Below are positions 16,068 through 51,137 of a stretch of DNA of 64,000 nucleotides, piece after piece (position 1 is the first letter of the stretch; each line of letters opens with the position of its first letter). The stretch spans positions 248,001 through 312,000 of the forward strand of contig CP142727.1 in the NCBI GenBank assembly GCA_036630325.1, given 5' to 3'. The notes beneath the pieces are model-generated. The model saw nothing but the letters and a program-made list of their open reading frames with translations, was not told where the DNA came from and did not search any database. A program made the position numbers and the translations under genes. The DNA is from Vairimorpha necatrix. Lineage: Eukaryota.

Positions 16068-17309
16068 TTATGTTTTTTTAATTTTTAAAAAACCCAATAA
16101 ATTGTTTCTTACTTTACAAATATTTTCTTTATCATCACTAACTTCAATATTTAAATTCACATAGACTGGACAATGATCACTACCATAAATTGATTCTATA
16201 ACATCTGAAAAAATAATCATATTAAAAAATTTTATAGGTACCAAAATATAATCAATACGACTTCCTAAATTCCTAGGTCGAAGATTTAGTTGTGTATTCC
16301 AACATGAGTATCTTTCATTTCTACTATCAAATACTCTAAATGCATCTATATGTGTCATTTCTAGAATAAATTTTAAGAGCCATTTTCTCTGGTATGTGCT
16401 ATAAAATAATAAAGATAAAGTAGATGCACTTTCTACAAGATAGGGGAGTTCAGTTTGACTAGAATAAGATTTCTCAATTATATTTATAGAATAATCTACA
16501 TCTTCATTCTCTATATCTTCCGATATAGAGAACGATAAATTTTTTAAATGACGAATTGACTGATAGAGAAATTTTAAATATGGCGAATTATATGAATTAA
16601 AGAATATATGAATATTTTTACCAAATAAAAAATTTAAATTGCTTTTATCTTCTATAAATATATTATCACTTATTGTATCGTCTCTTATCGCTACTTTAAA
16701 AAAATTTTCTCTGAATTTTGTATTATTAAAAATTTCTGAAAATTTTTCTATAATTTTAATATCGTGAATTTGAGTATCTATTTTTCTATCATACACTTTC
16801 TTATATTCATTATAAAAAATATAATGATCATATAAACTATAAGTAGCATTTAAATCGCCTAAAACTATCAAATCATCAAATTTTTTTATAAATTCGTAAA
16901 TTTCCCTATAAAATTTTATGACAGATTCTTTTGTTTTAGTACCATTTTTATCGTAAAACGGACAATACAAATTTAATATTTTAAAATTTTTATGATCAGT
17001 CAGAATTGATCTTCCGTACTCTGAATATGGAACTTTTATATTGTGTTTTCTACAATATAATTTTTTTGAAATGATTGTACATACGCCATAGATACCATTT
17101 TTATGTGTATTATTGTTACTTAGAGTTATATAATCTTTAAGTGTATAGAAATCTTCCATATCTTTTTTACAACATTTAGTTTCTTGAAGACATAAAATAT
17201 CGACTTTTAGATAAGTCAATAAATAATCATTAAATGATAAATCGAAATTTTCTTTGATAAATTTTGTAAATGATTTTATACCATTTACGTTAAACGACAT
17301 TATTTTCAT
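16068..17309 (-). CDS. APN2: exonuclease III-family AP endonuclease (APN2-like)
   Basis: SFNVNG, LQETK, GDLN, RIDYIL and SDHCPV motifs. Confidence 0.88.
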   Translation of the reverse strand: MKIMSFNVNGIKSFTKFIKENFDLSFNDYLLTYLKVDILCLQETKCCKKDMEDFYTLKDYITLSNNNTHKNGIYGVCTIISKKLYCRKHNIKVPYSEYGRSILTDHKNFKILNLYCPFYDKNGTKTKESVIKFYREIYEFIKKFDDLIVLGDLNATYSLYDHYIFYNEYKKVYDRKIDTQIHDIKIIEKFSEIFNNTKFRENFFKVAIRDDTISDNIFIEDKSNLNFLFGKNIHIFFNSYNSPYLKFLYQSIRHLKNLSFSISEDIENEDVDYSINIIEKSYSSQTELPYLVESASTLSLLFYSTYQRKWLLKFILEMTHIDAFRVFDSRNERYSCWNTQLNLRPRNLGSRIDYILVPIKFFNMIIFSDVIESIYGSDHCPVYVNLNIEVSDDKENICKVRNNLLGFLKIKKT

Positions 17310-18912: not shown

Positions 18913-20329
18913 TTAGGGTTAAAAAAATAGACCTTTTAATTATTTTAACCCTTTATTTGTTTATTAATTAGAAATTTTTGAAATATTATACTTTTTAAAT
19001 ATTAAGCAAAAATAGCTCATTTTTATACCTTTTAAAATATACAGAGAAAAAATGTATTATGACCAAAAAAATTTGCATACGTCATAAAATGTATAAATAA
19101 TTGTGAAAAGGAAATATATCAGTCTATGGATATTTTCTTATTGTAAAAAATTTTAGATTGTTATTTCGACTTGAAAAAAGGTTTATTCTTAATATCCTTT
19201 TCCCGTTTAATTTATTGCTCTATTGTTTATTTCTCTAAGAAAATTCCTCTTTACGGGATTTATTCTGTCCATTTTGCTCCTCTTAGGAGGCTTTCATAAG
19301 ACTGATGTATTTTGTCACTAAGGTGTACATCATTAGAACCGTAGTAATATGCTTCCGACCCAAAAGCTTGCCCGAACTTGAAGTAATAATGAACAATTAG
19401 ATTGATTACGTAAAATTTATATTTGAAACAATTTATTAAAATTTCTTCGGCGCCTTGCTTTACCTATATTAAATACATCTTTAGGTGTAATGTTTAGTGC
19501 GATCTTCTAGGCAGACACCTCATTTATCGTGTCCTTGATGTAGATAAGTTTTTTGCCCTTTGCAGACCACTTTTAACACTTCTTGCACTTTTTAAGCTTG
19601 TTATAAGACATTGCGTCAAATATTGCACGAGTTTTAAAAACAACTAGAAGTATTCTTTCTACAATTCGCATCGTCTGTCTTTGAATATCGAAATAATGCG
19701 ACAAGGCTAGACGAAAAGTTTTCTACATTTATTACTAATACTTCTTGATAGTTATAATACCTTAAATTAATTCTAATAAATATTTCTAAATATTGCAAAA
19801 TATTTATCTTTACTTGAACTAATATATTGAATTGTACCTTAGTAAAAATATTCTAGAATACAAAATCTTTTCAAATTGATAAATAAATTTACTTTCTTTG
19901 TTCTACATTTTTTACATTATAATATACCGTTTGGTGCATCAAATTTTAGTAAAAATCTATTTTTAAATTCCTTCTTTTTGATACGCTGATGGGCTAAAAT
20001 CTGCATTATCTAAAAAAATCACAAGAGACAAAATTTTTAACAAAAAGGAAAGGAAGAGAAAACTTTATAACCCTCGAACTTGATATGTATATAAAAATGT
20101 TACTATAAAAAGATCATTTGAGTTAATTTATCATTGGTCATAAATGTTTAAAGCAGCTTTCCCCGATATCGCTTATGTAATTCAGCTCTCCACAGACTTT
20201 ATTTTCTGTAAAATAATTATGTTTTTCAACTCCAAATTTTCAGCTTCATTCCCCTTTGACGACACCACTTCTATAACAATCGCCATATTCGCCAGTGCGC
20301 TTACAGCTCTGGCCACTTCTTTCTCTCCT

Positions 20330-20675
20330 GCATCTTCCTTATCGTATCCTCGTCGTCGTTCCGTAGTGATGGACTCTAGAGTCTAGAAAACAATAGATTG
20401 GATGTATGTTTCAAAGTAAGGTTAATTTACAGCTTCCTGATGTACTTTCGGTGGTTTTGGTCACCACTCAATCCCTCTCGTTACATAAGGACCTATTCTT
20501 GTCTGGGATTTATGAATACAAACCATTTCATTTGCAAAGGGCTATAATTTCGTAGTTTTCAGTTCGACTATAGTAGGTCGATCTTGATTGGTTATACCAA
20601 CTTCAACTACTAAAATTTAATTCTTCATCTTATCAAACACAAGAATGTCAGGCTTCTTATGAGTAAACTTTATAT
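20330..20675 (-). mobile_element. decayed RLE non-LTR retrotransposon 3' fragment
   Basis: Minus-strand translation gives KKPDILVFDK..ILVVEVGITNQD (PD-(D/E)xK-like) and ETYIQSIV..TLESITTERRRG, with stops. Confidence 0.7.
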
Positions 20676-20878
20676 AAAATGTCACCGTTCGGAGCGGACG
20701 CCAGGGAAAATGCTTATTTGAGAAGGGTAAAAAATTAAAAAAAAAATTACCCGTTCGGAGCGGACGCCAGGGAAAATGCTTACTTGAGAAGGGTAAAAAA
20801 TTTAAAAAAAAATTGGTGTTTATTTGTAATTTGTATTTAAAATTTCTTTAATTTTAAGGGCATGAAAATAAAATTGAA

Positions 20879-23800
20879 TGTGTTTATTTTCCATAATGAG
20901 GGGTAAAAATAATAAGGATATATAACATCCCCCCTCCAAGACGGTAGTCTCATACTAGAACTCATTAATCCCAAGCAGACCTTTTAAATCATAATGTCGC
21001 TTTTTCACGATCCTACCATTTTCCAAACTAACTAAGTACGAGTCACCTCCGCAAACTTCCTTGATAACACCATATCCTAAAAACCTTCCTTTCTCATACT
21101 TACTACAACCCGATAAGTTCTCTTTCTTCGCTACCCTAACTCTCTGACCTTTATAGAATTTCTCTCTTTTGCGAGCCACAAACCTCCTACTATAAAATCC
21201 TTCAGGTCCATTCTCGATCATAACATGGCCCGTTTCGTCTCTTGAGGCCTCAAACGGTGTACATCTCAACCCTTCATGATAGCTGTTATTATAACGCCAT
21301 ATACATCTATTAACCTTGGCTTCAAAATCCACAGCATCATCTTTCAATATTCCTTCTCTTATGGTTCCTATTACCCTTTCCACTCTTCCATTACTTCTAT
21401 GACTTTCTACGCTTACTTTCCTATGTAATACATTTTCCTCTGAACACCAATTCCTCATATATTCATTACTAAATTCTTTACCGTTGTCAGTAATTATTTC
21501 TACCGGTTTCATTCCTGATCCACACAACTGTTTTAAAAATCCTACAACCGAGCTTCCGCGTTTGTCCTCTATTACTTTTCCCCAAACGATCCTAGTATAA
21601 TAATCAATCACGACCAACACATATTTCCCTAAATCTCTAAACTCAATCAAATCCAAAGCAACCTTTTCCAAATAAAATCTTGAACTAACAAAATCACAAC
21701 CACCACTCTTTTTCCTATTATATATTTGGCAAACTTCACACTTCTTTAAAACATCCTCGATATCCTTCTTCATACCCGGCCAATAAAATTCAAACTTCAT
21801 TGCATAGTACACTGATCCTAAACTTCTATGTCCCAAATTTTCATGAGCATTGACAATTAAACCTTCACGCAATTCTTTCTTTGGAATCTCCGCTTCTCTA
21901 CCAGAGTCAAATACCCAAATGTCTTCCCATCAACAACTTTAACATGCTTGTCCCATTTACCCTGTGCCTGTTTAATACTTCTCTCCTTATTCATTAGCGT
22001 TTTCTCATTTTCATGTACCCTACTCAGTGCATCTGCTACAACCATGGTACTAGGCTCTCTATATTCAATGCTAAAGTCGAACTCTTGAATCTTTTCAATC
22101 CACCTGTTAATCCTATTATTGTTAAATGCTGGTTTATTTCTAATCTCGATCAATGCCTTATGATCAGTTTCTACCCTAAATCTTCTTCCGCGTAGTTCAT
22201 ATTCAAACTTTTTAATTCCCCAAAAGACTGCATACATCTCCTTCTCACTGATTCCATATCTCGTTTCCGTAGGCGTAAACTTTTTTGATGCCCACTGTAC
22301 TGGTACCCAATTACCTTGATCATCTTCCTGCATTAAAACAGCACCCATTCCAACATTACTCGCATCCGTGCGTAACAAAAATTCCTTATTATAATTAACA
22401 ATTGCTAAACCTATTAAATCCCTAATCACTTCCCTTAAACTAATATACTCTTTTTCCATTTCTTCTGTCCATTTCCAATTACTTCCTCGTCCTTTAAGAG
22501 AATCCGTCAACGCCAATGTACGTTTTGCATAATTATCAATATGATTTCTAAACCATCCAGCCAGCCCAAGAAACTTCCTAACATCTGATACACACTCCGG
22601 TTTGGGAAATTCTAACGCTTCATTTTGCTTTATTTCAGATGGCAGTATCTCCTTGCCATTAACTGTTACTCCTAACAACATCACCTCTCGTTTACATAAT
22701 TGAACCTTAGCCAAATTAATTTTCATACTATTCTCCTCTAATATATCCACAGCCTCTTTCAACAATTTGTCGTGACCCTCTCTTGTCTTACTATGAATCA
22801 CAATATCGTCCATATAAATTTCGATTCCCTTACCAATAAATTTTTCAAAAATCCCATTCATTATTCTTTGTAATATCTGCGGTGAGTTTTTAAACCCCAT
22901 GACCATCGAATTCCACTCGTATACCTTTTTATTAAACTCAAAAGCCGTCTTAAACCTATCCTTCTCTTCAATCTCAATACTATAAAACCCCTCCTTTAGA
23001 TCTATCACGGTAAAAAATTCAGATCCCTGTGTACTTCTAATAACATCTCTTATCCTAGTTAACTCATAAGGATCCTTCTCTACAATGTCATTAAGAGCAA
23101 TTAAATTACTTACTAATCTTATATCACCATTCGGTTTCTTAATCGCTCTAATGGGATTTCTCCAGTCAGATGTCGACCTTCTAATTATCTTTCTTCTTTC
23201 CAAACTATTAATATAATCTTCCGTCTTCTTCAACAAAGCCTGAGCTATAGCCTGCCCTTTTTTAACAACTTTCTTGCCTTCTTGAGTCTTGATAATACAT
23301 TTTTCAACCTTACAAAAACTAATATCTTCATCCTCTCTTCCTCCTACCCGTGAAATAATCTCCTCTAAATACGCGATGCCTCTTACATCCCTTCTCAACA
23401 GAACTCTCTTATTATTGTCCCTTTTGCTATAATCTTGTATATCCCCTAAATTTTTCTTCTTACGTTTCCCACCATCAACATTATAATAATCACATTTGTC
23501 CGAATTGGAATCGTCATCACATTTACCCTCTAAGTCTAATTGCACTTTACATTTACCAACATAATTAAAACTACTTTTATTTCTTCTGTCTTCAGAATCT
23601 CGCCCCATTCCCCTACAAAATCTAACACTATGGCCTAACTTCCCACAATTGTAGCAACGCATATTCTTTTTATTTTCCTCACGAGACAACTTATTCTTCT
23701 CCTCAAATTTAGCCCATAACGCTAGGGACAACTCTTCAAATTCTTTTTTTCTCACTTGTTCCTTTTCCTCCTGAATAGCTAGCAACTCTAATTTTTCCTC

Positions 23801-24061
23801 AATTTCCTTCCAACTACCCTCTTGCGATATCCTCTCAACAATAAAATTTCTCAATAAAATAGAACCTCTCCTAAAAATTTCTAATTTAAATCCACACTCA
23901 TCAATTTTCTCTAAAAACAACTCATAAACAATCCTTTTAACCTCTTTTAATAATATTATAGCCTCTTGGCCACGGTCCTCCTTTGTAGACCCATTTTCTG
24001 GTATCGCCCCCATGTGTTTATTTTCCATAATGAGGGGTAAAAATAATAAGGATATATAACA
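20879..24061 (-). mobile_element. Ty3/Gypsy LTR retrotransposon A with 49-bp LTRs
   Basis: Identical TG..CA LTRs at 20879-20927 and 24013-24061; TSD TTGAA; PBS TGGGGGCGATACC; PPT GGAGGGGGGA. Confidence 0.95.
20955..24028 (-). pseudogene. gag-RT-RNaseH-integrase of element A, one frameshift near 21925
   Basis: CYNCGKLGHSVRFC, YMDD, RTDAS/EKEM/TDHKAL/ADALSR, HHCC and DDE integrase motifs. Adding one base restores GKDIWVFDSGR. Confidence 0.85.
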
Positions 24062-25603
24062 TTGAATAACAATGAAAGACAAAAAGTTTTTGTCTTTTTA
24101 CAGACTGGTATTGTAATAGACATAATACAATTTAATAAAGAAAATTATGCAAAGAAGGGATAATGATATTATAATAGAAAAAATAAGTACTAGAGATCTA
24201 AGGTTGCTTGGTAATGAATAAAGTACTAAAAATTTTGTTTATTTTATTTTTCTCCTTTTTTCAATATTCCCTCCCATTATTATAAAAAAATAGCAAAAAT
24301 TTATCCCTCAAAAAATCGAGACAAAACTTTGGTTATCATTTAAGGCGAACATTTATTTGCTCTTATTTTTTGGTTCGATCCTCACTGAAGAGTTTTTTTT
24401 TAATTTTTTACCCCTGGCGTTCGCTCCGAACTGTGACATAAAATGTTACTAAATAAAGATTTAAATATCTAAAAATATAAAAAATATTATTCACAATAAT
24501 GCTTTAAATCTTCTTTGACTCTCAATCCTCCTAATCATATGGGGAGTCAAATATATCTCTGGAAGGTTATATGTCCTACATCTAATAGGTATAGATTCTT
24601 TAAATGACCTTCAATCCCCTTCAAAAGTGTTTGTACGGACACCTGTTTCGATATTTAAAAATGTTTAACTATGATTCGATGTTTAATGGTGCTTATAATG
24701 ATATTCTTTCCGGGTTTTATAGGCCCTCCACATAACAGAATGAACGAGATCCAAAATTACATGCATAAATAAGAACGGAAGCAATGCATCCTTGTTTGCT
24801 TTTTAAAGTCATAAAAATATTCTTTAATCTTCAGTTCTTTGCACCATTTCGAACACCAAAAACTTTAAATCAGCGTCCTCTATGGTATTTAATTTTTCCA
24901 ATCTTACTTTCGTATATCTCTAAGACAATTTCCTTGCCTTCTTTCTGCCCTAGGTTATTCAACTGTCTTAAAAAAATTTTATTTTTACAATTTTTAAGGT
25001 ATAACTAATGTTTTATGCGTTATAATCCAATATTCTTGAGATATGCGCCATTTAAAGTTCCGAATTTTAAAAATAAAAAATTTTAAACAAAATAATATAA
25101 TCTTTGTTATCATTTTAAAATAGAGAATTATTCTAAATTGAAAATCTGCGTTTGCAAGAAGGAAACTTTCTTTTAAATTAAACTATTTCCTTTGGTAATT
25201 TGGCTGCATTAGAACCACATATTGCACATTTCTGTTAATAATTTCTTGCTTAATAGACGTTCATATATGTCTTCTTTCTGTATTACTCAGCAATTCTTTT
25301 ATTTTTTTTTTAGAAAATGAACGATTTTTTAAAAATTCTGATACTGTGATTTTTTACACTATGCTGATTATTGCCCGTTGACAGCAAAATTTCTTTTGAC
25401 ATGTAGCAAAAAAACAATTCTATTATTGTTCTTAAAGATCAATAAGTATTACTAAAAAACGAATTTTAACAAAAATGTGAGAATAATAAATGATTACATA
25501 TCATGATTTTGCATAGAATAAACCAGCCGATTTGATTAAATGTCATTAATCAATGTCATATATCAAAAAACGTCCTTTATATTTTTTATCAAAAAAGATG
25601 CCC

Positions 25604-30536: not shown

Positions 30537-31358
30537 ATGTTTCTAGCAGCAATTATTTTTATATTAAAAATAGCAGCCAACAACGAAGCTTTGATATTTA
30601 TTGATAATAATGAAGAAGAATGCACGATTTTTTTAGGAGGTAATCTTAAATATAAACCAGGATATTACATTTTGAGTTTATTGGAAAATACTTATAGTAT
30701 GGAACCCCGATTAGAAGGTTCGATTAGAGACCCTATAGCGGTTGCATTTCCTGGCCTGCCTTTTGCATTTGTTCCTTTTGAAATAGATGAGATTTTTTTA
30801 AATAATTTTGATGCAACTTTTAATAACATAGATGAGAAAATCAAAGAAAAGTTTTTAAAATCGAATATTTTTTATAGACTTACTTTTCAATATAACAAAC
30901 ATAGTACATATGCCATACAGTTATTATATCTTAAAACTAGAGATATAGTCAATAAGTTTTGGAGATCAGAAACTTTCGAAATAGAAAAGGGGGATAAATC
31001 TAAACTATTGCCTTTAAACATAGAATCATCTAAAACATTCGAATTTTATAAAGTTAAAATTCCAGAAAGTTGGCAAGAACATTTTCATCATACTAACTAC
31101 AATAACGTTTATGTTCTAAATTACGAAAAAAGCCAACAAAAATTAGGTGAGTCAAATAGCCCGAATATTACTCAAGAAAAAGGGAAGGAAAGTAGCACAA
31201 CAAGTCAATCAGAAGAAGTTTTACATGAAAAAAATGAAAATGCTCCTAACGAGAATCGACCTATTGGAAATAGTGTGTTACTTATATTGGCATGTTTTCT
31301 TCTTTGCATTTCAATTTTTATTTCATACTTGATACTAAGTAAAATCAGAAGAGCTTAA
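30537..31358 (+). CDS. type-I membrane protein family X, copy 1 (short stalk)
   Basis: Signal peptide, ~190-aa domain, S/T/E linker, TM, KIRRA tail; CCCCATG start context. Confidence 0.85.
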   Translation: MFLAAIIFILKIAANNEALIFIDNNEEECTIFLGGNLKYKPGYYILSLLENTYSMEPRLEGSIRDPIAVAFPGLPFAFVPFEIDEIFLNNFDATFNNIDEKIKEKFLKSNIFYRLTFQYNKHSTYAIQLLYLKTRDIVNKFWRSETFEIEKGDKSKLLPLNIESSKTFEFYKVKIPESWQEHFHHTNYNNVYVLNYEKSQQKLGESNSPNITQEKGKESSTTSQSEEVLHEKNENAPNENRPIGNSVLLILACFLLCISIFISYLILSKIRRA

Positions 31359-36504: not shown

Positions 36505-37413
36505 ATGTTTCTAGCAGCAATTATTTTTATATTAAAAATAGCAGCCAACAACGAAGCTTTGATATTTATTGATAATAATGAAGAAGAATGCACGATTTTT
36601 TTAGGAGGTAATCTTAAATATGAACCAGGATATTACGTTTTGAGTTTGTGGGAAAATACTTATAGTATAGAACCCCGATTTGAAGGTTCGATTAAAGACC
36701 CTATAGCGGTTGCATTTCCTGACCTGTCTTTTGCATTTGTTCCTTTTGAAATAGATGAGATTTTTTTAAATAATTTTGATGCAACTTTTAATAACATAGA
36801 TAAGAACATCAAAGAAAAGTTTTTAAAATCGAATATTTTTTATAGACTTACTTTTCAATATAACAAACATAGTACATATGCCATACAGTTATTATATTCT
36901 AAAACTAGAGATATAGTCAATAAATTTTGGAGATCAGAAACTTTCGAAATAGAAAAGGGGGATAAATCTAAACTATTGCCTTTAAACATAGAATCATCTG
37001 AAACACTCGAATTTTTAAAAATTAAAATTCCAGAAAGTTGGCAAGAACATTTTCATCTTATCAACTGCTATACCGTTTATGTTCTAAATTACGAAAAAAG
37101 CCAACAAAATTTAGGAGAGTCAAATAGCCCGTTTATTACTCAAGAAAACCCAGAAAGCTCTAGCATAACAAGTAGACCAGAAAAGGAAGAAAGCGAAAGC
37201 TCTAGCATAACAAGTAGCTCAGAAGAAGAAAGCGGAAGCTCTGTCAAAATAAGTGAATCTGAAAAAGTTGAAGTTTTACATGAAAAAAATGAAAATGGCC
37301 CCAACGAGAATCAATCTAAGGCAAATAATGTGTTGATTATATTGACATGTTCTCTTATTTGCGTTTCAATTTTCATCTCATGGCTGATACTAAGTAAAAT
37401 CAGAAGTGCATAA
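36505..37413 (+). CDS. type-I membrane protein family X, copy 2
   Basis: Paralog of 30537 and 44202; intermediate S/E-rich stalk. Confidence 0.85.
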   Translation: MFLAAIIFILKIAANNEALIFIDNNEEECTIFLGGNLKYEPGYYVLSLWENTYSIEPRFEGSIKDPIAVAFPDLSFAFVPFEIDEIFLNNFDATFNNIDKNIKEKFLKSNIFYRLTFQYNKHSTYAIQLLYSKTRDIVNKFWRSETFEIEKGDKSKLLPLNIESSETLEFLKIKIPESWQEHFHLINCYTVYVLNYEKSQQNLGESNSPFITQENPESSSITSRPEKEESESSSITSSSEEESGSSVKISESEKVEVLHEKNENGPNENQSKANNVLIILTCSLICVSIFISWLILSKIRSA

Positions 37414-38834
37414 ATAAAGGTCTTTTTTCTTATTAAGTTAATTTTTCTTTTTGAACAAAAAAATAATATCAGTTTTCAAACTTTAGCTAAACGTAGCACA
37501 TTTAAAAATGTTTAATTACATTAATAGTAAGTAGTTGTTGTAAACGAGTGTATAACTTATAAGAATAATACATCAACAAAAAAAAACTTTTGTGGTTACT
37601 ATTTGTATTCACAAGTAAAAATTGCCATTGAAGTATTACCTATAAGAGCTGTAACAAAGCTTTAACAATTCGTAGTGGTTGAATTTGTTTCGATAAATCT
37701 ATACTCTAGTGTATCTATAAACATATTACCAGCATAAACCTAGCCCGACTGAGTGTATAAAATGTCATTCAAAGAGTAAGTCGCTTTAGTGAATTAAATT
37801 GTGAAGTTTGACAGGCACGGTTTAGACTGATCTAAGTGCTGGGAATATTGAAATATTGAACTTGAGATATAAATGAATATTTAGTTTTTTAAATTTCATG
37901 TATATGCATTTTATATACTTTAATATTGAATATGGATCTTATAAAATAATGAAACCCCGTCTTTGTGATTTACATCTAGTTGAAAAAATGCTTCCAAGAT
38001 TAAAATAATGTAGAATTAATCTTTTGAATGCACATAGCCACTTGTCGGTGCACAACGAAGCAAAATCCTTGGCAATATCAAGACATCAAACGAAGTTGAG
38101 CAATAGAAGGTCTCGTGGACCATATCCTACAAGATTTTGTAACACGGTAGCTGAAACTAGCGAGAGATTGGTTGTAAACTATAACACAAAATGCAGAATT
38201 AGTGATGTGGCGGTGTAAGGAGCCGTGTGTGCAATACAGATGATTTTAGGGACTTTTGAGTTAGTACGATGATGTATCCTCGGCCTATAACCGCCGTGGT
38301 TGTATTATTTTTGCTAATATATCTTATGGAAGAAGATATGGACATAGGTGATAACTGATTTGCTTTTCGCCAATATTCAAATTGTGCGGCTAAGCTTCAA
38401 CAAGTGTTATTATTTGTAAAATTTTTTAAAGTGAAAATCTTAAAGTATCGCAAAGAAGATATCACAATCTAAGTAATTGAAATCATATGTAAGAAGGTTC
38501 CCTTTCTCTTTAGCAAGAAATAATGGATTTTGAAGCAAAGTAAGGGTATTCGTCATTCTTAGCTGGCTTGATTGCCTGTCTTCTCTCAGCTCCATTTTAC
38601 ATTTAAGATGGGGCTTTTTTATTTTTCAAAGTCTTTCCACATTTGACGATAATAAAATAGGTTCCATTGTGCAGGTAAATCAATTATATTATTATTTTAT
38701 CTTATTATATTTAATTTTTTATATATTTTAAGATGACAAATTACTTATAACCGAAGTTTACAGAAGGTTATAAAGTCATTTTCAAATCTTATAAACATAT
38801 TTACTCTTTATATTTTTTCTTATCCCTCCAGTAA

Positions 38835-39785
38835 ATGTTTTTTTTTAATTTTCTACACGTATTAATTTCTTGTTCTTCTCATATTCCAAATTTCGAACAA
38901 GTTCTTTATTCTTCAATTCTCTGTAGGTTAAAATTTACCACCAGACATCTTACTGACACTTCTATAAATGACATTTGTGAAGATATAAGAAAAAATATAC
39001 CTTTCGATTTGGATATCCTTCATTATGGTGCATATTATGATTTACATCTTATAATAAGCAATAACCAAGATAATTTGATATTAATTATTTATTTTAATGA
39101 GTTATTTGTGTACATCTCGAAAGAATGTGCTAATAATAATAGTTCAAGTACTGAACAGAAGCATAATACAGACGAAAATGCTACTAATAGTACAGAAGAT
39201 CTTCTTATAAATGTGCCCACTGATTATCTCCTGTCATTTCTTAAATGTAAATATTTTTTACAGAACAAAATAAAACATGAAGATTTAAAATTCGTCAACC
39301 TCAAATTGTTAATGTTTCTACGACTAAAATATTCGTCTATTCTCGATCTTAAACTGTCTATCCCAGAATTCCACAATTTATTATTTTACATTTACACGAT
39401 ACAATTCATTACCGACCCGGAAATAATCTTTGATACTCTTATTAATTTTTCGATAACTTATTATATTTTAATTAATAACGACAATATTAAAAATAATATT
39501 AATTATATCTATTATTTAATAGAGAAAATAATGAATAATGTGATACCACTGACATATCTTATGACGAATTTTCAAGAACTAAAAAGTGCTATGATGAGCG
39601 CAGACAGCGAAGATATTTATAAAATACGAAGTTATGGAATTATATTGTTTTTTGAGAGTATACAGTTTAACAAATGTAGGAAATTGGGCATGCCTTGGAA
39701 TTTGATAAGTCAAATAACTATAAAAGAAAGTGATAAATCTAAAATATTAGACAAACTAGAAAAATTAATGGATATATTTTATTAA
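38835..39785 (+). CDS. putative secreted hypothetical protein Y, copy 1
   Basis: 316-aa ORF, signal-like N-terminus, CCC before ATG; near-identical copy at 50187. Confidence 0.8.
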   Translation: MFFFNFLHVLISCSSHIPNFEQVLYSSILCRLKFTTRHLTDTSINDICEDIRKNIPFDLDILHYGAYYDLHLIISNNQDNLILIIYFNELFVYISKECANNNSSSTEQKHNTDENATNSTEDLLINVPTDYLLSFLKCKYFLQNKIKHEDLKFVNLKLLMFLRLKYSSILDLKLSIPEFHNLLFYIYTIQFITDPEIIFDTLINFSITYYILINNDNIKNNINYIYYLIEKIMNNVIPLTYLMTNFQELKSAMMSADSEDIYKIRSYGIILFFESIQFNKCRKLGMPWNLISQITIKESDKSKILDKLEKLMDIFY

Positions 39786-43008: not shown

Positions 43009-43793
43009 TGTCACAGTCCGGAGCGGACGCCCGTCCGCAGCGGACGCAAGGGGTAGAAAATAAAAAAAAATCTCTTCAGTGAGGATCAAACCAAAAAATA
43101 AGAACAAATAAATGTTCGTCTTAAATGACTGCCCAAATTTTGTCACGAGTTTTTAGGGGTATATTTTTGTTTTATTTTTATAATAATGGGAGGGAATAAT
43201 GAAAAAAAGAGAAAAAAAACATAAACAAAATTTTTAGTACTTTATTCATTTCCAAGCAATCTAAGATCCCTAGTACTTATTTCATCTATAATAATTCCAT
43301 TATCATCTTTTCTGCATAATTTCACTTTATTAAATTGTATTATGTCTATTACAATACCAGTCTGTAAAAAGACAAAAACTTCTTGTCTTTCATTGTTATT
43401 CAATTTTATTTTCATGACATTAAAATTAAAGAAATTTTAAATACAAATTACAAATAAACACCAATTTTTTTTTATTTTTTACCCTTCTCAAGTAAGCATT
43501 TTCCCTGGCGTCCGCTCCGAACGGGTATTTTTTTTTTAATTTTTTACTCTTCTCAAGTAAGCATTTTCCCCTGCGTCCGCTCCGAACGGGTATTTTTTTT
43601 TTTAATTTTTTACTCTTCTCAAGTAAGCATTTTCCCCTGCGTCCGCTCCGAACGGGTATTTTTTTTACTTAATTTTTTACCCTTCTCAAATAAGCATTTT
43701 CCCCTGCGTCCGCTCCGGACGGATATTTTTTTACTTAATTTTTTACCCTTCTCAAGTAAGCATTTTCCCTTGCGTCCGCTCCGGACGGTGACA
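43009..43793. mobile_element. non-autonomous TIR element (TGTCAC...GTGACA), copy 2, five ~66-bp subterminal repeats
   Basis: TSD TAAAT (or ATAAATT); empty sites near 30128 and 36097. Confidence 0.9.
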
Positions 43794-44201: not shown

Positions 44202-45533
44202 ATGTTTCTAGCAGCAATTATTTTTATATTAAAAATAGCAGCCAACAACGAAGCTTTTATATTTATTGATAAAAAGGGAAAAGACTGCACGATTTTTTTA
44301 GGAGATAATCTTAAATATGAACCGGGATATTACATTTTTAGTTTATTACAAAATATATCTAGTACAGAACCCCAATTTGAACGTTTGATTAAAAACCCTT
44401 CAAAGGTTTTTGAACCTGACCTGCCTTTTACATTTGTTCCTTTTGAAAAAGATAAGAATTTTATAAATAATTTTGATGCAACTTTTAATAACATAGATAA
44501 GAACATCAAAAAAAAGTTTTTAAAATATAAAAATTGTTATAGTCTTACTTTTCAATATGAAGAATCCAAAAAATATGCCATACAGTTATTATATTGTAAA
44601 ACTGGAGATATAGTCAGTAAATTTTGGAGATCAGAAACTTTCAAAATAGAAGAGTGTGTCAAATCTAAACTATTGCCTTTAAGCATAGAATCATCAAATC
44701 CTCGCAAATTAAATGAAATTAAAATTTCAGAAAGTTGGCAAAACCATTTTGATCGTATCGACCTTTATACCGTTTATGTTCTAAATCACAAAAAAAGCCA
44801 AAAAAAATTAAGTGAGTCAAATAACCCGGTTTGCACACAAAAAAAAGGGGAGGAACCTAGCAAAACAAATAAACCAGAAACAGAAAAACCAGAAAGCTCT
44901 AGCAAAACAAATAAACCAGAAACAGAAACCCCCGGAAGCTCTAGCAAAACAAGTGAACCAGAAGAAGTAGAATCAAACAGCCCTAGCATAACAACTAAAT
45001 TAGAAACAGAAACCCCCGGAAGCTCTATCAAAACAAATAAACCAGAAACAGAAACCCCAGAAAGCTCTAGCAAAACAAGTGAATCAAAAGAAGTAGAATC
45101 CGGAAGCTCTAGCATAACAAGTAGCTCAGAAAAAGTAGAACCCGGAAGCTCTATCAAAACAAATAAACCAGAAACAGAAACCCCAGAAAGCTCTAGCAAA
45201 ACAAGTGAATCAAAAGAAGTAGAATCCGGAAGCTCTAGCATAACAAGTAGCTCAGAAAAAGTAGAACCCGGAAGCTCTATCAAAACAAATAAACCAGAAA
45301 CAGAAACCCCAGAAAGCTCTAGCAAAACAAGTGAATCAAAAGAAGTAGAATCCGGCAGCCCCAGTATAACAAGTAAATCAGAAAAAGTAGAAGTTTTACA
45401 TGAAAAAAATGAAAATGGCCCCAACGAGAGTCGATCTAAGGCAAATAATGTGTTGATTATATTGACATGTTCTCTTATTTGCGTTTCAATTTTCATCTCA
45501 TGGCTGATACTAAGTAAAATCAGAAGTGCATAA
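44202..45533 (+). CDS. type-I membrane protein family X, copy 3 (repeat-expanded stalk)
   Basis: Paralog; stalk built of 42-aa repeats. Confidence 0.85.
   Translation: MFLAAIIFILKIAANNEAFIFIDKKGKDCTIFLGDNLKYEPGYYIFSLLQNISSTEPQFERLIKNPSKVFEPDLPFTFVPFEKDKNFINNFDATFNNIDKNIKKKFLKYKNCYSLTFQYEESKKYAIQLLYCKTGDIVSKFWRSETFKIEECVKSKLLPLSIESSNPRKLNEIKISESWQNHFDRIDLYTVYVLNHKKSQKKLSESNNPVCTQKKGEEPSKTNKPETEKPESSSKTNKPETETPGSSSKTSEPEEVESNSPSITTKLETETPGSSIKTNKPETETPESSSKTSESKEVESGSSSITSSSEKVEPGSSIKTNKPETETPESSSKTSESKEVESGSSSITSSSEKVEPGSSIKTNKPETETPESSSKTSESKEVESGSPSITSKSEKVEVLHEKNENGPNESRSKANNVLIILTCSLICVSIFISWLILSKIRSA
45015..45392 (+). repeat. in-frame 126-bp tandem repeat (~3 units plus degenerate upstream unit)
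   Basis: CCCGGAAGCTCTATCAAAAC at 45015, 45141 and 45267. Confidence 0.9.
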
Positions 45534-46846
45534 ATAAAGGACTTTTCTCTTATTAAGTTAATTTTTCTTTTTAAACAAAAAAATAATATCAGTTTTTTAA
45601 CCTTAGTTAAATGTAACACATTTAAAAATGTTTAATTACATTAATATTAGTAAGTAGTAGTTGTAAACGAGTGTATAATTTATAAGAATAATACATCAAC
45701 AAAAAAAAACTTTTGTGGTTACTATTTGTATTCACAAGTAAAAATTGCCATTGAAGTATTACCTATAAGAGCTGTAACAAAGCTCTAAAAATTCGTAGTG
45801 GTTGAATTTGTTTCGATAAATCTATACTCTAGTGTATCTCTAAACATATCATTAGCATAAACCTAGCCCGACTGAGTGTATAAAATGTCATTCAAAGAGT
45901 ATGTCGCTTTAGTGAATTAAATTGTGAAGGTTGACAGGCACGGTTTAGACTGATCTAAGTGCTGGGAATATTGAAATATTGAACTTGAGATATAAATGAA
46001 TATTTAGCTTTTTAAATATTCATGTATATGCATTTTATATACTTTAATATTGAATAAGGATCTTAAAAAATAATGAAAAATCGTCTTTGTGATTTACATC
46101 TAGTTTTGAAAAAATGCTTCCAAGATTAAAATAATGTAGAATTAATCTTTTATATGCACATAGCCACTTGTCGGTGCACAACGAAGCAAAATCCTTGGCA
46201 ATATCAAGGCATCAAACGAAGTTGAGCAATAGAAGGTCTCGTGGACCATATCCTACAAGATTTTGTAACACGGTAGCTGAAACTAGCGAGAGATTGGTTG
46301 TAAACTATAACACAAAATGCAGAATTAGTGATGTGGCGGTGTAAGGAGCCGTGTGTGCAATACAGATGATTTTAGGGACTTTTGAGTTAGTACGATGATG
46401 TATCCTCGGCCTATAACCGCCGTGGTTGTATTATTTTTGCTAATATATCTTATGGAAGAAGATATGGACATAGATGATAACTGATTTGCTTTTCGCCAAA
46501 ATTCAAATTGTGCGGCTAAGCTTCAACAAGTGTCATTATTTGTAAAATTTTTTAAAGGGAAAATCTTAAAGTATCGCAAAGAAGATATCACAATCCTAAG
46601 TAATTGAAATCATATGTAAGAAGGTTCCCTTTCTCTTTAGCAAGAAAAATTGATTATGAAGCAAAGTAAGGGTATTCGTCATTCTTAGCTGGCTTGATTG
46701 CCTGTCTTCTCCCAGCTCCATTTTACATTTAAGATGGGGGCTTTTTTTATTATCCAGAGTCTTTCCACATTTGACGATAATAAAATAGGTTCCATTGTGC
46801 AGGTTAACCAATTATATTATTATTTTATCTTGACATTTTTATTTTC

Positions 46847-49800
46847 TGTGATATATTTGTATAATTTCTATCCCCCATTATGATAAATAAAGACATGGGG
46901 GCGATACCGAATCGTCAGTTTACAAGTGTGGATTGTGGTCTAGAGGCCAAAAAGTTATTAAAAGAAGTTAGAAGAATAATGTATAGGTTGAAGATGGAGG
47001 AAATAGAAATCAGTTTGTGGAAGCAGAGAATATTTATGGAAGGAAGTGAAGAAATAAAAAATTTCATGGTAGAAAGAATTAGTAAAGAGGACGAATATTA
47101 TAAAATAATTGAGAAATTAGAGGAGGAAATATGTAGAGAAGAAAGAACTAAAAAAGAAGAAGAAAATAGGAGAGAACTTATGGAGGTCATAGCTGAGAAT
47201 GTTAGAGAAACTGTGAGAAAAGAAATTCAAGAGAAAGATTTAGTTTTAAGGAATACAGTACAAGAAATAAGAAATAATAGGAATTGTTTTAATTGTGGTA
47301 AATTTGGCCATATGGCTAGGAACTGCTATGTAGGAAGGAACAATAATCAGGAAAATAATAAAAAGTTTAATAAGTACTTAAATTTAGACGAAAACCAAAG
47401 TTGTAGTAGCAGTAATGATAATAAAGAATATAAACCAAGTGGAAAGACAAAACGAGTTAAGTTAAAGGAATGTAATAATAGTGATAGAAGACATAAAGAA
47501 AGAATATATGCGAGCAATAAAGAGACGAAAAGAAGATTACTGAAGAGGGCATTTACGTTGGAAGATCTCAAAGCGGAATATGAAGAAGTTTTTAAACAAG
47601 GAGATGAGGTTATAAGTTATTGTACATTAGAGAAGTGTAAGATAGATACTCCAGAGGGTAAGAAGATAGTCAGAAAGGGGCAGACGATCCCACAGGCTTT
47701 GATCAAACAGACTGAGGAATATATTAATGATTTAGAAAATAGAAAAATTATAAGAAGATCGTCTTCGGAATGGCGAAACCCAATAAGAGCGATACTTAAA
47801 CCAAGTGGTGAAGTAAGAGTAGTTAGTAATTTTATAGGGTTGAATGATTTAGTCGAGAAAGACCCGTATGAGCTAACTAATATGAGAGAAATAATAAGAG
47901 CTACGCAAGGGTCGATAATATTTACTGTTGTTGATTGCAAAGAAGCATTTTACCATTTTGAAATTGAAGAAAAAGATAAACATAAGACGGCGTTTGAATT
48001 TAATAAAAAAGTTTACGAATGGAATAGTATGGTGATGAGATACAAAAATTCTTCACAGATACTACAGAGAACGATGAATATGATTTTTGAAGATTTGCGA
48101 GGAAATGGTGTTGAGGTATACATGGACGATATAGTAATACATGCCAAAAATAAACGTAAACACGATGAATTAGTAATGGAAGTTTTAGAAAGAATTAAGA
48201 GAAATAAAATGAAATTAAATATTGGGAAAATACAGTTTAGACAAGCGGCAGTAAAATTATTAGGTGTGACGCTGAATGGAATAGACATGACGGCCGACGA
48301 AATAAAGAAAAATGAAGCCTTGGAGTATCCGGATCCAAAAACTTTGACGGAATTGAGGAGGTTTCTAGGATTGACTGGATGGTTCAGACCATTTATAAAA
48401 GATTATGCCGGGCTGACGTTGAAAATGACAGATAGTTTGAAGAAAAATGGAAATTCGTGGAAATTTACGGAAGAGATGAAAGAGGAATTTACTAAAATGA
48501 AAAATGTGTTAAGAAATATGGGAAGACTAAGATTACCGGACTATAATAAGGAGTTCATACTAAGAACAGACGCTAGCAATTTGAGATTGGGTGCGGTGTT
48601 ACTTCAGAAGAATGAGAATGGGGAATGGGTTGCTATACAATGGGCATCTAAAAAGCCAACACCTACCGAAATAAGATATGGAATATCAGAAAAGGAAATG
48701 CTTGCGATATATTGGGGCATTGATAAATTTAAATACGAGTTAAGAGGTAGGAAATTCAAGATAGAAACGGACCACAAAGCACTGGTGGAGATAAGAAATA
48801 AACCGTTTTTTATAATAACAGAATAAATCGCTTAATCGAGAAGATACAGGAATATGATTTTATCGTGGAATATAAAAAACCTGATGAGATGGTGGTAGCA
48901 GATGCGTTGAGTCGAATAAATATGGAAGAGGATATTAAAGAAATGAAAAATAAAGAGCGAACAATCAAGCAAACAGAAGGTAAATGGAAAGCACATGTTT
49001 CTTCCGAGAATGGAAAGCAATATTGGCAATTTGACTCAGGACGTAAAGTTGAAATACCACCTGAGAATATAAGGAGACAATTAATCCAAGAATATCATGA
49101 AAAATTAGGCCACAGATGCATGACAAGTGTTTATTATGCAATGAGAGAAGAATACTATTGGCCAGGAGTAAAGAAAGAAATAAACGAGGTTATAAAACAG
49201 TGTCAGAAATGTCAGATATATAACAGGAAAAATATGGGTGGTTGTAAATTTGTAGATACGTCGAGATACTTAGAGAAGGTTGCATTAGATTTGATAGACT
49301 TTAAAAATGAGAAGAAATATGTTTTAGTTGCTATCGATTATTTTACACGTAGAGTATGGGGAGTAGTTATAAATAACAAGTCAAGTAATAATGTTGTTGG
49401 ATTTTTGAAAAGATTATGTGAGCAAGGGAAGAAACCAGAAGAAATTATTACAGATAACGGGAAAGAGTTTATTAACGTGGAATTTAGAAAATTTTGTAGA
49501 GATCTCGATATAATACACCGACAAGTAAGTATAGAAGCGCATAGAAGTAACGGAAGAGTAGAGCGTGTTATAGAAACTTTGAGAGAAAGTATTTTAAAGT
49601 CGGATGCGAAAACTTTTGAAGGTAAAGTGTATAAAAGTATCGATGTATATAATCAGAGCTATCATATGGGAATAAAATGTACACCATTAGAAGCGACTGA
49701 AGATAAAACTGGAGACGTAATGCTTGAAAATGGCCCTATAGGGAAATATTGTAATAGGTTTGGAAAGGGAAAGATCGAAAAATTTAGTAAAGGTCAATTG

Positions 49801-50064
49801 GTAAGAATAGCTAAACGAGAAAATTTGGCAGGTGTTAATAAGTATGAAAAAGGAAGATTTTTGGATACAGGAAAAATTGTTGAAAAGTGTGGAAAGGATT
49901 CTTATATTGTAAAACTTAGTAATGGTAGGCTTGTGAAGAAGAGACATTATGATCTGAAGGGTATGCTTGGGGTAGATGTGAAAATTAAATGAGACTAACC
50001 GTCTTGAGGGGGGATTGTGATATATTTGTATAATTTCTATCCCCCATTATGATAAATAAAGACA
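46847..50064 (+). mobile_element. Ty3/Gypsy LTR retrotransposon B with 49-bp LTRs
   Basis: Identical LTRs at 46847-46895 and 50016-50064; TSD TTTTC; PBS TGGGGGCGATACCG; PPT GAGGGGGGA; absent from the paralogous site near 38715. Confidence 0.95.
46880..49992 (+). pseudogene. gag-RT-RNaseH-integrase of element B, one frameshift near 48810
   Basis: CFNCGKFGHMARNC, YMDD, RNase H and integrase motifs. Adding one base restores FNNNRINR. Confidence 0.85.
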
Positions 50065-50186
50065 TTTTCTTTTTATATTTTAAGATGACAGATTACTTAT
50101 AACCAAAGTTTACAGAAGGTTATAAAGTCATTCAAAAATCTTATAAACATATTTACTCTTTATATTTTTTCTTATCCCTCCAGTAA

Positions 50187-51137
50187 ATGTTTTTTTTTAA
50201 TTTTCTACACGTATTAATTTCTTGTTCTTCTCATATTCCAAATTTCGAACAAGTTCTTTATTCTTCAATTCTCTGTAGGTTAAAATTTACCACCAGACAT
50301 CTTACTGACACTTCTATTAATGACATTTGTGAAGATATAAGAAAAAATGTACCTTTCGATTTGGATATCCTTCATTATGGTGCATATTATGATTTACATC
50401 TTATAATAAGCAATAACCAAGATAATTTGATATTAATTGATTATTTTAATGAGTTATTTGTATACATCTCTAAAGAATGTGCTAATAATAATAGTACAAG
50501 TACTGAACAGACGCATCATACAGACGAAAATGCTACTATTAGTCCAGAAGATCTTCTTATAAATGTGCCCACTGATTATCTATTGTCATTTCTTAAATGT
50601 AAATATTTTTTACAGAACAAAATAAAACATGAAGATTTAAAATTCGCCAACCTCAAATTGTTAATGTTTCTACGACTAAAATATTCGTCTATTCTCGATC
50701 TTAAACTGTCTATCCCAGAATTCCACAATTTATTATTTTACATTTACACGATACAATTCATTACCGACCCGGAAATAATCTTTGATACTCTTATTAATTT
50801 ATCGATAACTTATTATATTTTAATTAATAACGACAATATTAAAAATAATATTAATTATATCTATTATTTAATAGAGAAAATAATGAATAATGTGATACCA
50901 CTGACATATCTTATGACGAATTTTCAAGAACTAAAAAGTGCTATGATGAGCGCAGACAGCGAAGATATTTATAAAATACGAAGTTATGGAATTATATTGT
51001 TTTTTGAGAGTATACAGTTTAATAAATGTAGGAAAATGGGTATGCCTTGGAATTTGATAAGTCAAATAACTATAAAAGAAAGTGATAAATCTAAAATATT
51101 GGACAAACTAGAAAAATTAATGGATATATTTTATTAA
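50187..51137 (+). CDS. putative secreted hypothetical protein Y, copy 2
   Basis: About 10 aa differences from 38835-39785 by manual count. Confidence 0.8.
   Translation: MFFFNFLHVLISCSSHIPNFEQVLYSSILCRLKFTTRHLTDTSINDICEDIRKNVPFDLDILHYGAYYDLHLIISNNQDNLILIDYFNELFVYISKECANNNSTSTEQTHHTDENATISPEDLLINVPTDYLLSFLKCKYFLQNKIKHEDLKFANLKLLMFLRLKYSSILDLKLSIPEFHNLLFYIYTIQFITDPEIIFDTLINLSITYYILINNDNIKNNINYIYYLIEKIMNNVIPLTYLMTNFQELKSAMMSADSEDIYKIRSYGIILFFESIQFNKCRKMGMPWNLISQITIKESDKSKILDKLEKLMDIFY

Follow-up and report, generated by a model that had tools for sequence, protein, structure and literature searches.

Two elements in a 64-kb stretch of the Vairimorpha necatrix genome (hereafter, the window) were analysed, namely element B (46847-50064, plus strand, 3218 bp) and element A (20879-24061, minus strand, 3183 bp). 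Both have the structure of a long terminal repeat (LTR) retrotransposon, and in both the LTRs are 49 bp long. They probably represent a microsporidian clade of ultra-compact Ty3/gypsy-type LTR retrotransposons, in which the 49-bp LTR would be a complete, spacer-free expression and replication cassette. The anatomy of the elements, their exact ends, their mobility and the conservation of the design across the family are matters of direct observation. Positions within an LTR are counted on the element strand throughout.

Structure of elements A and B

A repeat search revealed perfect 49-bp direct repeats at 46847-46895 and 50016-50064 in element B (plus strand; spacing, 3169) and at 20879-20927 and 24013-24061 in element A (spacing, 3134). 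The search gives them as 50- and 51-nt repeats, which are the 49-bp LTR and one or two flanking bases that match by chance. Since A lies on the minus strand, its 5' LTR is the repeat at 24013-24061 and its 3' LTR is that at 20879-20927; the two LTRs of each element are identical. The LTRs of both elements begin with TGT and end with ACA, and 5-bp target-site duplications flank them: TTTTC for B (46842-46846 and 50065-50069, plus strand) and, on the element strand, TTCAA for A (TTGAA on the plus strand, at 20874-20878 and 24062-24066).

Directly inside the 5' LTR lies a 13-nt primer-binding site (PBS), TGGGGGCGATACC, which is the same in both elements (46896-46908, plus strand, in B and 24000-24012, minus strand, in A); the two sequences diverge right after it. 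A G-rich purine run, the polypurine tract (PPT), directly precedes the 3' LTR and reads GGAGGGGGGA in A (20928-20937, minus strand) and GAGGGGGGA (50006-50014, plus strand) followed by a T in B. Ahead of the purine run, A and B share the conserved block GAGACTAnCCGTCTTG, which is capable of forming a 5-bp hairpin. In B, the small hairpin (GAGAC..GTCTT) and the PPT together occupy 49991-50015 (plus strand), and the same block is found in A and in a related locus, L006, described below. Direct terminal repeats bounded by TG..CA, a target duplication of 4-6 bp and an adjoining PPT are criteria for Ty3/gypsy elements, and A and B have all of them.

The 15-nt word consisting of the last two LTR bases and the PBS occurs twice in the window (0.00 expected), and a degenerate 24-nt word for the 3' half of the LTR occurs four times (0.04 expected). 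Since the latter four matches are the four LTRs themselves, there is no solo LTR in the 64 kb. The ends of B were fixed by a paralogue of its insertion site that lacks the element (38522-38900, plus strand). This segment aligns to both the left and the right flank of B, and the alignments meet at 38715-38717, corresponding to the left target-site duplication; B therefore ends exactly at the ends of the 49-bp repeats, and its 5-bp duplication is established. The window contains a segmental duplication of a gene pair of unassigned function (30537-31358, 36505-37413 and 44202-45533; 38835-39785 and 50187-51137), whose paralogues have near-identical upstream regions. After this duplication, B was inserted into one of the copies; it is oriented like the ORF at 50187-51137 and lies 122 nt upstream of its ATG (50187).

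The LTRs of A and B are identical at 38 of 49 bases and align on the element strand with no indel. Both have ATATAT at positions 5-10, within TATATAT (4-10) in A; B has TATA-like words at 6-9 and 14-17. Relative to the ATG described next, an exact TATAWAW is located at -30 in A, and TATA is located at -28 and -20 in B. A T-rich stretch is followed by a C run (CCCC at 26-29 in A and CCCCC at 26-30 in B) at -9 to -6 from the ATG. In both LTRs, the ATG occupies positions 34-36 (24028-24026 of the window in A) and AATAAA occupies positions 40-45. The terminal A of the LTR and the TG at the start of the PBS form a second ATG (46895-46897 in B), 15 nt after the first and in the same frame. The open reading frame (ORF) begins MENKH-MGAIP in A and MINKD-MGAIP in B, the PBS being translated as (M)GAIP. 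Since the ORF starts at the LTR ATG, the poly(A) signal forms codons 3-4 (N-K) and the PBS forms codons 6-10. An earlier note on this DNA had described LTRs of exactly 49 bp bounded by TG..CA with 5-bp duplications, ATATAT near the 5' end, a C run at about 25-30, an ATG at 34, AATAAA at 40-45, a second in-frame ATG at the junction with the PBS, and an ORF that starts in the LTR and reads through the PBS. The repeat search, the sequences and the translations of A and B confirm this description throughout.

Overall, A and B share 67.9% DNA identity over 3111 aligned columns, and their proteins are 54% identical in the gag-reverse transcriptase (RT)-RNase H part and 63% identical in the integrase. 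Only 3.9% of the internal 49-nt windows match the level of the LTR (38 identities). LTRs usually evolve faster than pol. The LTR of these elements is as conserved as the catalytic cores, which points to many overlapping functions. In the RNA folds predicted for A (23948-24038, minus strand) and B (46870-46960, plus strand), the C run of the LTR forms a stem with the G run of the PBS. This stem includes the second AUG and encloses a loop with the first ATG and AAUAAA; one G-C pair of B is G-U in A. Neither fold reached significance in a shuffling test (z, -1.5 and -1.7).

The region upstream of the LTR ATG was compared with the 14 non-element ORFs of at least 250 aa in the window (11 if paralogues are merged). 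CCC starting at -15 to -3 was present in 10 of the 14 ORFs (8 of 11 when merged) as against a background of 5% at random positions (binomial P, ~1e-10). Four of the 14 had TATA at -26 to -28, and a fifth (44202) had TATA words spanning -27 to -33. Several host stop codons overlapped an ATAAA word. The serine palmitoyltransferase encoded in the window was 75% identical to that of V. ceranae, 66% to that of V. bombi and 59% to that of N. granulosis, which places the host in the Nosema/Vairimorpha clade, whose gene-front layout has been published. In Nosema ceranae, according to Cornman et al. (PMC2685015), the 15 nt next to the start contain a C triplet that follows a T run, most commonly at -10 to -3, and TATA peaks near -27. 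In Encephalitozoon (E.) cuniculi, 5' untranslated regions (UTRs) are shorter than 7 nt as determined by rapid amplification of cDNA ends, a CCC-like motif lies just upstream of the start, and roughly half of the genes examined have AAUAAA close to the stop codon (Peyretaillade et al., PMC2803860). The view that the LTR copies the host 5' layout, with TATA near -28 and CCC at -10 to -3, is supported by these comparisons; the host-style promoter proposed in the earlier note thus has counterparts in the host genes of the window and in the literature (PMC2685015, PMC2803860).

Relatives, mobility and coding capacity

A search with A gave 159 matches at E ≤1e-3 among 7998 scored candidates. The top 55 matches had E values of ~1e-83 or lower and proteins of up to ~1040 aa, many of them on contigs of 3.0-3.3 kb. 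Intact relatives were ~3.0-3.2 kb in size with one ORF of ~1000-1040 aa. The named homologues came from Nosema granulosis, V. necatrix, V. apis and Enteropsectra breve, and three were labelled as bacterial metagenome-assembled genome (MAG) bins; apart from these three, all named members of the clade were microsporidian.

The N-termini of the relatives carry the imprint of the LTR-PBS junction. Since the LTR ends in ..NACA and the PBS starts with TGG, the codon that precedes the second Met has to encode Y, H, D or N, and the residue that follows is G when the PBS reads TGGGG.. and A when it reads TGGC... The N-termini suggest further PBS classes of the forms TGGCNAAYAC.. and TGGCNWCNGC.., which may match other tRNAs. 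Among the 55 homologues, 22 started with M-x(1-8)-[YHDN]-M-[AG] and 8 at the second (junction) Met; two showed M-A inside the RT, and the remaining 23 started otherwise, most of these being N-terminally truncated. An in-frame upstream ATG before any stop was thus present in 22 of 30 proteins, as against 18% expected by base composition (P = 6e-11, a generous value since the rows are related).

A corresponding imprint was found at the other end. Of 25 proteins with a conserved KKRHYDLK-like C-terminus, 9 (P0006, P0020, P0029, P0030, P0032, P0385, P0386, P0388 and P0389) continue to ..ETTRLE.G-ML.. or ..GG-DV.., a tail that is the translation of the hairpin block, the PPT and the TGT of the 3' LTR. 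Six of these C-termini were found by pattern, and those of P0006, P0029 and P0030 by eye. L006 (2690-2770) also reads through. The read-through extends 5-27 nt into the 3' LTR, and the ORF spans from LTR to LTR in about a third of the members. In the DNA of L006, ..GGAGGAGGGGA leads into a block of 38 bp that begins with TGT, contains CCCC and an AATAAA that overlaps an ATG, and has ACA at its end. The sequence beyond this block is unrelated, and the ORF stops at positions 12-14 of this LTR. In L020, a decayed copy, a block of ~47 bp ending in ACA is followed by TGGCAACACC...

L006 came from a survey of further collections. A genome scan gave three loci in two MAG bins, with 66 matches in those bins, mostly other gypsy types or decayed copies; no second copy of the L006 LTR was found. 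Among five loci from a metagenome scan, two were family members, both 5'-chimeric with an RNase H fragment fused to gag. In these two (L001, 50-430; L002, 1092-1470), an RNase H fragment from another element stands, in frame, in place of the N-terminus of gag, which may reflect a nested or recombinant copy or an assembly chimera. No internal repeats were found in L001, L002, L006, L007 or L008, and the viral contig scan yielded no family member. A profile search of 1.84 billion representatives added little on N-termini, the top 150 matches being mostly long fused gene models. An excess of 25-100 nt of Logan contigs over the ORF was considered as evidence for tiny LTRs and rejected, since contigs breaking at LTR borders would look alike.

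A FastTree phylogeny (60 rows, 863 columns) placed 32 compact rows, including A and B, and 28 other gypsy rows on opposite sides of one branch (length, 1.21; support, 100). Family proteins below 850 aa were left out of the tree, as were other matches outside 950-1300 aa or past the first 28. A and B fell in a clade of eight rows (support, 99) together with a V. necatrix member, and the L006 protein fell in a neighbouring group. Together with the N- and C-termini of the homologues, the tree supports the suggestion of the earlier note of a lineage, as opposed to two odd copies.

Part of A was found in 20 sequencing runs from 13 studies, none of them on record as RNA and six guessed to be RNA. 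Four runs (X1, X2, X15 and X16), all of them as contigs, were examined against A. X1 and X16 each contained a 3165-nt contig, a length equal to the LTR-to-LTR period of 3134 plus 31, and the X16 contig had 86 differences. In X2, the LTR formed a separate 50-nt contig with a depth of 69.5, compared with 39 for the main internal contig of 2285 nt, which implies about two LTRs per element and few solo LTRs. The contigs of X2, X15 and X16 covered A without the flanks found in the window and passed into other sequence where the LTRs end. The contigs of the four runs thus indicate that the A family is multi-copy and occupies other sites elsewhere with the same ends. A and B are probably young copies of two families. 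One X1 contig that joins 20842 to 24084 was considered as an empty site for A and was too weak to count (depth, 5; side, 24). In X15, the run type of which was guessed as RNA, the depth along A (20869-24009) was ~56-68 over the integrase half and climbed through 197 to 747 at the gag end; depth was flat in X1, X2 and X16.

The proteins of both elements gave Pfam matches in the order zf-CCHC, RVT_1, RT_RNaseH, Integrase_H2C2 and rve, with nothing further. In B (plus strand), the first piece of the ORF runs from the LTR ATG over 46880-48826 and contains the gag CCHC knuckle (~47282-47326), RT (~47792-48274) and RNase H (~48464-48799). The second piece (48812-49992) contains a linker and the integrase (H2C2, ~49057-49227; rve core, ~49288-49521) and ends with TGA at 49990-49992. 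Between them, a one-base frame shift in a T6 run at 48806-48811 (KPFF / YNNRINR...) represents a copy-specific defect or an assembly error. In A (minus strand), the first piece (21857-24028) encodes the gag CCHC, RT, RNase H and the start of the integrase, and the second (20955-21872) encodes the integrase. The break in A lies at a different place, near 21922, where one base is missing; this base is present in the contigs of all four runs examined. Since an intact 1024-aa protein that is 98% identical to A occurs in a public assembly, the intact form is a single ORF.

No match to the retropepsin family was obtained in any of 21 full-length family members at E values of up to 1, and the sole peptidase family found among them was Peptidase_A17 (two members; best E, 0.047). 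In the alignment, none of the columns from the CCHC to the first RT motifs was invariant, and there was no invariant D-[ST]-G between C138 and C244. In an AlphaFold2 model (21-row alignment; mean predicted local distance difference test score (pLDDT), 77), residues 16-121 were helical, residues 124-138 formed the knuckle and RT began at ~220; residues 141-213, the stretch between CCHC and RT, had a pLDDT of less than 50 and no fold. More distant gypsy matches do carry PF00077, PF13975 or PF08284. On this sequence evidence, the family is one without a protease. The chromodomain PF00385 was likewise absent from the 21 scanned members and from the family rows, and was present in some distant matches. 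Residues 1-19, which are encoded by the LTR and the PBS, were disordered in the model, so that their codons would be free to carry nucleic-acid signals.

A proposed replication cycle and its alternatives

The transcription start, the length of the R region and the cleavage site were placed by analogy with the rules of host genes, and the following cycle would result. The left integrase end, TGTKATAT, would overlap a TATA box at -28/-30. RNA polymerase II would act on the TATA and the T-run/CCC region and, given that microsporidian 5' UTRs are shorter than 7 nt, would start a few nucleotides before the first ATG, at about LTR position 27-33. The genomic RNA would then be nearly leaderless, like host mRNAs. 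The AAUAAA of the 5' copy would lie within ~10 nt of the cap and would presumably be unused, and that of the 3' LTR would direct cleavage at the terminal CA or from a few to 20 nt into the host DNA. U3 would measure ~26-32 nt, R would extend from the start site to the end of the LTR (~17-23 nt) and U5 would be ~0. A tRNA would prime at the 13-nt PBS. The tRNA-Pro PBS of gammaretroviruses begins with TGGGGGC.., which makes tRNA-Pro a candidate primer; it would need a 3' end of ..GGUAUCGCCCCCA. Strong-stop cDNA of ~20 nt would be transferred to the 3' R, the PPT would prime the plus strand, and integrase would use the TGT..ACA ends. The two in-frame ATGs, 15 nt apart, would keep translation in frame for transcripts that start either before or after the first ATG.

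Several observations weigh against this proposal. The runs examined consisted of contigs only, which cannot show where transcripts start or end. At least five full-length homologues (P0012, P0026, P0036, P0037 and P0043) do not have the junction-Met pattern. The LTR lengths of L006 (38 bp) and L020 (~47 bp) each come from a single LTR. Since the frame is broken in both window copies, neither A nor B is autonomous as assembled. The LTR of B has no exact TATAWAW and the 38-bp LTR of L006 has no clear TATA, and the promoter may therefore consist of the T run and CCC alone or lie partly outside the LTR. The usual distance of ~20 nt from AAUAAA to cleavage (given for E. cuniculi in PMC2803860) puts the cleavage site in host DNA, which is unusual for an LTR element. 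Finally, the only tRNA in the window, Arg-ACG, does not match the PBS.

If transcription started downstream of the first ATG, at LTR position 35 or beyond, the junction ATG would be the real gag start and R would be ~10-14 nt, the LTR ATG being kept for other reasons or used by a minority of transcripts. A distance of 25-30 nt from the TATA at 4-10 would indeed allow a start anywhere between 30 and 40, the gene calls of 8 of the 30 homologues with a complete N-terminus begin at the junction Met, and an R of ~10 bp has been published for Sire (PMC3601003). This arrangement is nevertheless unlikely, since the in-frame upstream ATG has been kept without a stop in 22 of the 30, well above expectation, and the host CCC sits 3-12 nt before the ATG that is used, which fits the first ATG. 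It is more improbable still that the LTR has no self-sufficient promoter, so that the genomic RNA would arise by read-through or from upstream host promoters and the role of the CCC/ATG block would be confined to translation or processing. Polycistronic RNAs and transcription overrun have been described in E. cuniculi (PMC2803860), only ~14 nt lie ahead of CCCC in the LTR of L006, and the imperfect TATA of B would also be in keeping with such a dependence. However, strand transfer needs R at both ends of the RNA, which only a start inside the LTR provides; the register of TATA and CCC is the same in two families that differ by 32% overall, and the family has spread to many sites and species.

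Self-priming of the Tf1/sushi kind, in which the C run at the 5' end of the RNA folds onto the G run of the PBS and is cut to prime the minus strand, is suggested by the minimum-energy folds, which pair CCCC(C/U)CAU with AUGGGGG in both elements, and by LTR positions 22-31 of B (TATCCCCCA), which, if one gap is allowed, agree with the reverse-complemented PBS at 10 of 11 positions. The pairing, however, covers only 6-7 nt of the PBS, all 13 nt of which are the same in A and B, and the rest of the PBS is poorly matched by the LTR of A. The folds lack statistical significance, CCC occurs as a motif of host genes in general, and host-like 5' UTRs would leave the C run mostly upstream of the start. 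In addition, the LTR of L020 is C-poor and its PBS is different and G-poor; L006 keeps the CCCC run. We consider self-priming to be very improbable. We give almost no credence to the idea that the short repeats are long LTRs shortened by deletion, or assembly artefacts, and that the copies are dead relics. The frame breaks of the two window copies would agree with it, but the same 49-bp layout recurs in two families with TG..CA ends, 5-bp duplications and an adjoining PBS and PPT. An empty site for B exists, independent runs give the same period and the LTR as a separate 50-nt contig, the intact copy is 98% identical to A, and N- and C-termini across the clade encode the LTR junctions. The LTR as a self-contained cassette, with transcription starting just before its ATG, is thus the reading that we prefer.

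Known elements, neighbouring features and implications

Among known microsporidian elements, Nbr1-8 of Nosema bombycis were reportedly described by Xu and colleagues in 2006. Microsporidia-specific Ty3/gypsy groups with a single polyprotein were reported by Parisot et al. in 2014 (PMC4202319). The elements described here resemble these groups and the Nbr elements in their microsporidian hosts, in belonging to the Ty3/gypsy superfamily and in having one gag-pol ORF. We conclude that elements of the A and B type very likely belong to the same broad microsporidian single-polyprotein Ty3/gypsy groups as those of Parisot et al. (PMC4202319). In the accessible main text of that paper, LTR length, the PBS and the position of the start codon are not given, nor does the word protease appear. 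According to a secondary account (PMC2474625), nearly all Nbr elements have a protease domain. In contrast, a protease was detectable in none of the 21 members scanned here.

Elements of the Tf1/sushi group also have a single gag-pol ORF, and the 5' end of their RNA may fold on the PBS, the first ~11 nt of the transcript, as self-primer, being complementary to the whole PBS. Tf1 differs in having a protease and LTRs of several hundred bp, and the fold of A and B pairs only 6-7 of 13 nt of the PBS. Ty1 of Saccharomyces (S.) cerevisiae (Pseudoviridae) has LTRs of ~330 bp, a 5' UTR of ~50 nt and tRNA-iMet as its primer. Its PBS lies inside the GAG ORF, as in A and B (PMC4974528), and the statement of the earlier note that gag starts downstream of the PBS does not therefore hold as a general rule. 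Since the PBS of Ty1 follows the 5' LTR, we infer that GAG must start upstream, in the LTR part of the RNA. Ty1 and the elements described here are alike in that cis-acting RNA signals are embedded in coding sequence; Ty1 differs in its size of 5.9 kb, its two ORFs, its protease and its copia domain order (PMC4974528).

The Sire/Retrofit elements, which are plant copia elements (Benachenhou et al. 2013, PMC3601003), show the same order of modules, TGT..ACA ends, TATA, AATAAA and a very short R, that of Sire being ~10 bp because TATA and the poly(A) signal lie close together. Their LTRs are hundreds of bp long and, in the accessible part of that paper, contain no start codon, whereas A and B have all modules within 49 bp, overlapping the ORF. 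FRetro129 (SMART) and FRetro64 of grasses (Gao et al. 2012, PMC3281118) have short LTRs, TGT..ACA ends and 5-bp duplications, as do A and B. FRetro129, presented there as the smallest LTR retrotransposon reported at the time, is non-coding and 292 bp long with 85-bp LTRs, and its candidate autonomous partner FRetro64 measures 5,234 bp with LTRs of 76 and 90 bp; A and B are coding elements of 3.2 kb with LTRs of 49 bp, and the LTR of their relative L006 has 38 bp. The V. necatrix genome paper (PMC10759460) counts 109 retroelements and does not describe their structure, and De Albuquerque 2020 (PMC7313128) does not mention LTR, gypsy or protease.

In the searchable open literature, supplements and Repbase lying outside this scope, we found no LTR of 38-49 bp that combines a promoter, a start codon and a poly(A) signal at fixed spacing, no translated PBS and PPT, and no description of LTR elements that have no protease. 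Single features therefore have precedents (the PBS of Ty1 in GAG, the short R of Sire and the short LTRs of FRetro elements), and their combination was not found in the literature examined. We suggest only tentatively, and with rather less confidence than we place in the cassette itself, that microsporidia may harbour the smallest autonomous LTR retrotransposons known. These would form a phylum-wide clade of elements of 3.0-3.2 kb that has shed its protease and has LTRs of 38-49 bp, each LTR serving as leaderless promoter, gag start, poly(A) signal, R of ~20 nt and both integrase ends. With the PBS, and often the PPT and the start of the 3' LTR, being translated, nearly every base would be coding, and LTR finders would miss such elements. 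The usual minimum LTR length of standard LTR finders is ~100 bp.

The window contains other repeats and mobile elements. Tandem units of ~66 nt that have a GC-rich core (CCGTTCGGAGCGGACGCCAGGG..) make up a dispersed repeat at 20665-20796 and 43493-43788, with two units 83 nt from A and five units ~3 kb upstream of B (seven matches; 0 expected). Part of this repeat was treated as high-copy in the run comparison. A search of Rfam with 20000-25500, which covers the first of these sites and element A, gave no match. On the minus strand, a 316-aa ORF at 6221-7171 matches DDE_Tnp_IS1595 (E, 1.5e-13) and is probably a Merlin-type DNA transposon, a type already reported in microsporidia; it has a CCC motif at -6 and is followed by a long T run and a G run. 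Also on the minus strand, a 413-aa ORF at 16068-17309 with CCC at -9 matches Exo_endo_phos (E, 1.7e-10) and could encode a host nuclease or the endonuclease of a non-LTR element.

The homologue names show that elements of the A and B type are annotated as lone 'reverse transcriptase', 'endonuclease' or 'Tf2 polyprotein' genes, and LTR-based counts and insertion dating in microsporidian genomes would be off. The apparent lack of a protease raises the question of how the gag-pol protein matures; a host protease might cleave it, or it might function without processing. Every copy would scatter a ready promoter and ATG, a possible source of new or altered host transcripts. If our reading is correct, ~40-50 bp would be the practical lower limit for a working LTR, which has to hold a promoter, R-mediated strand transfer, a 3'-end signal and integrase recognition, given host signals as short as those of microsporidia. 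Genome compaction would then act on a selfish element as it does on host genes, leading to leaderless mRNA, a poly(A) signal in or next to the coding sequence, and overlapping functions.

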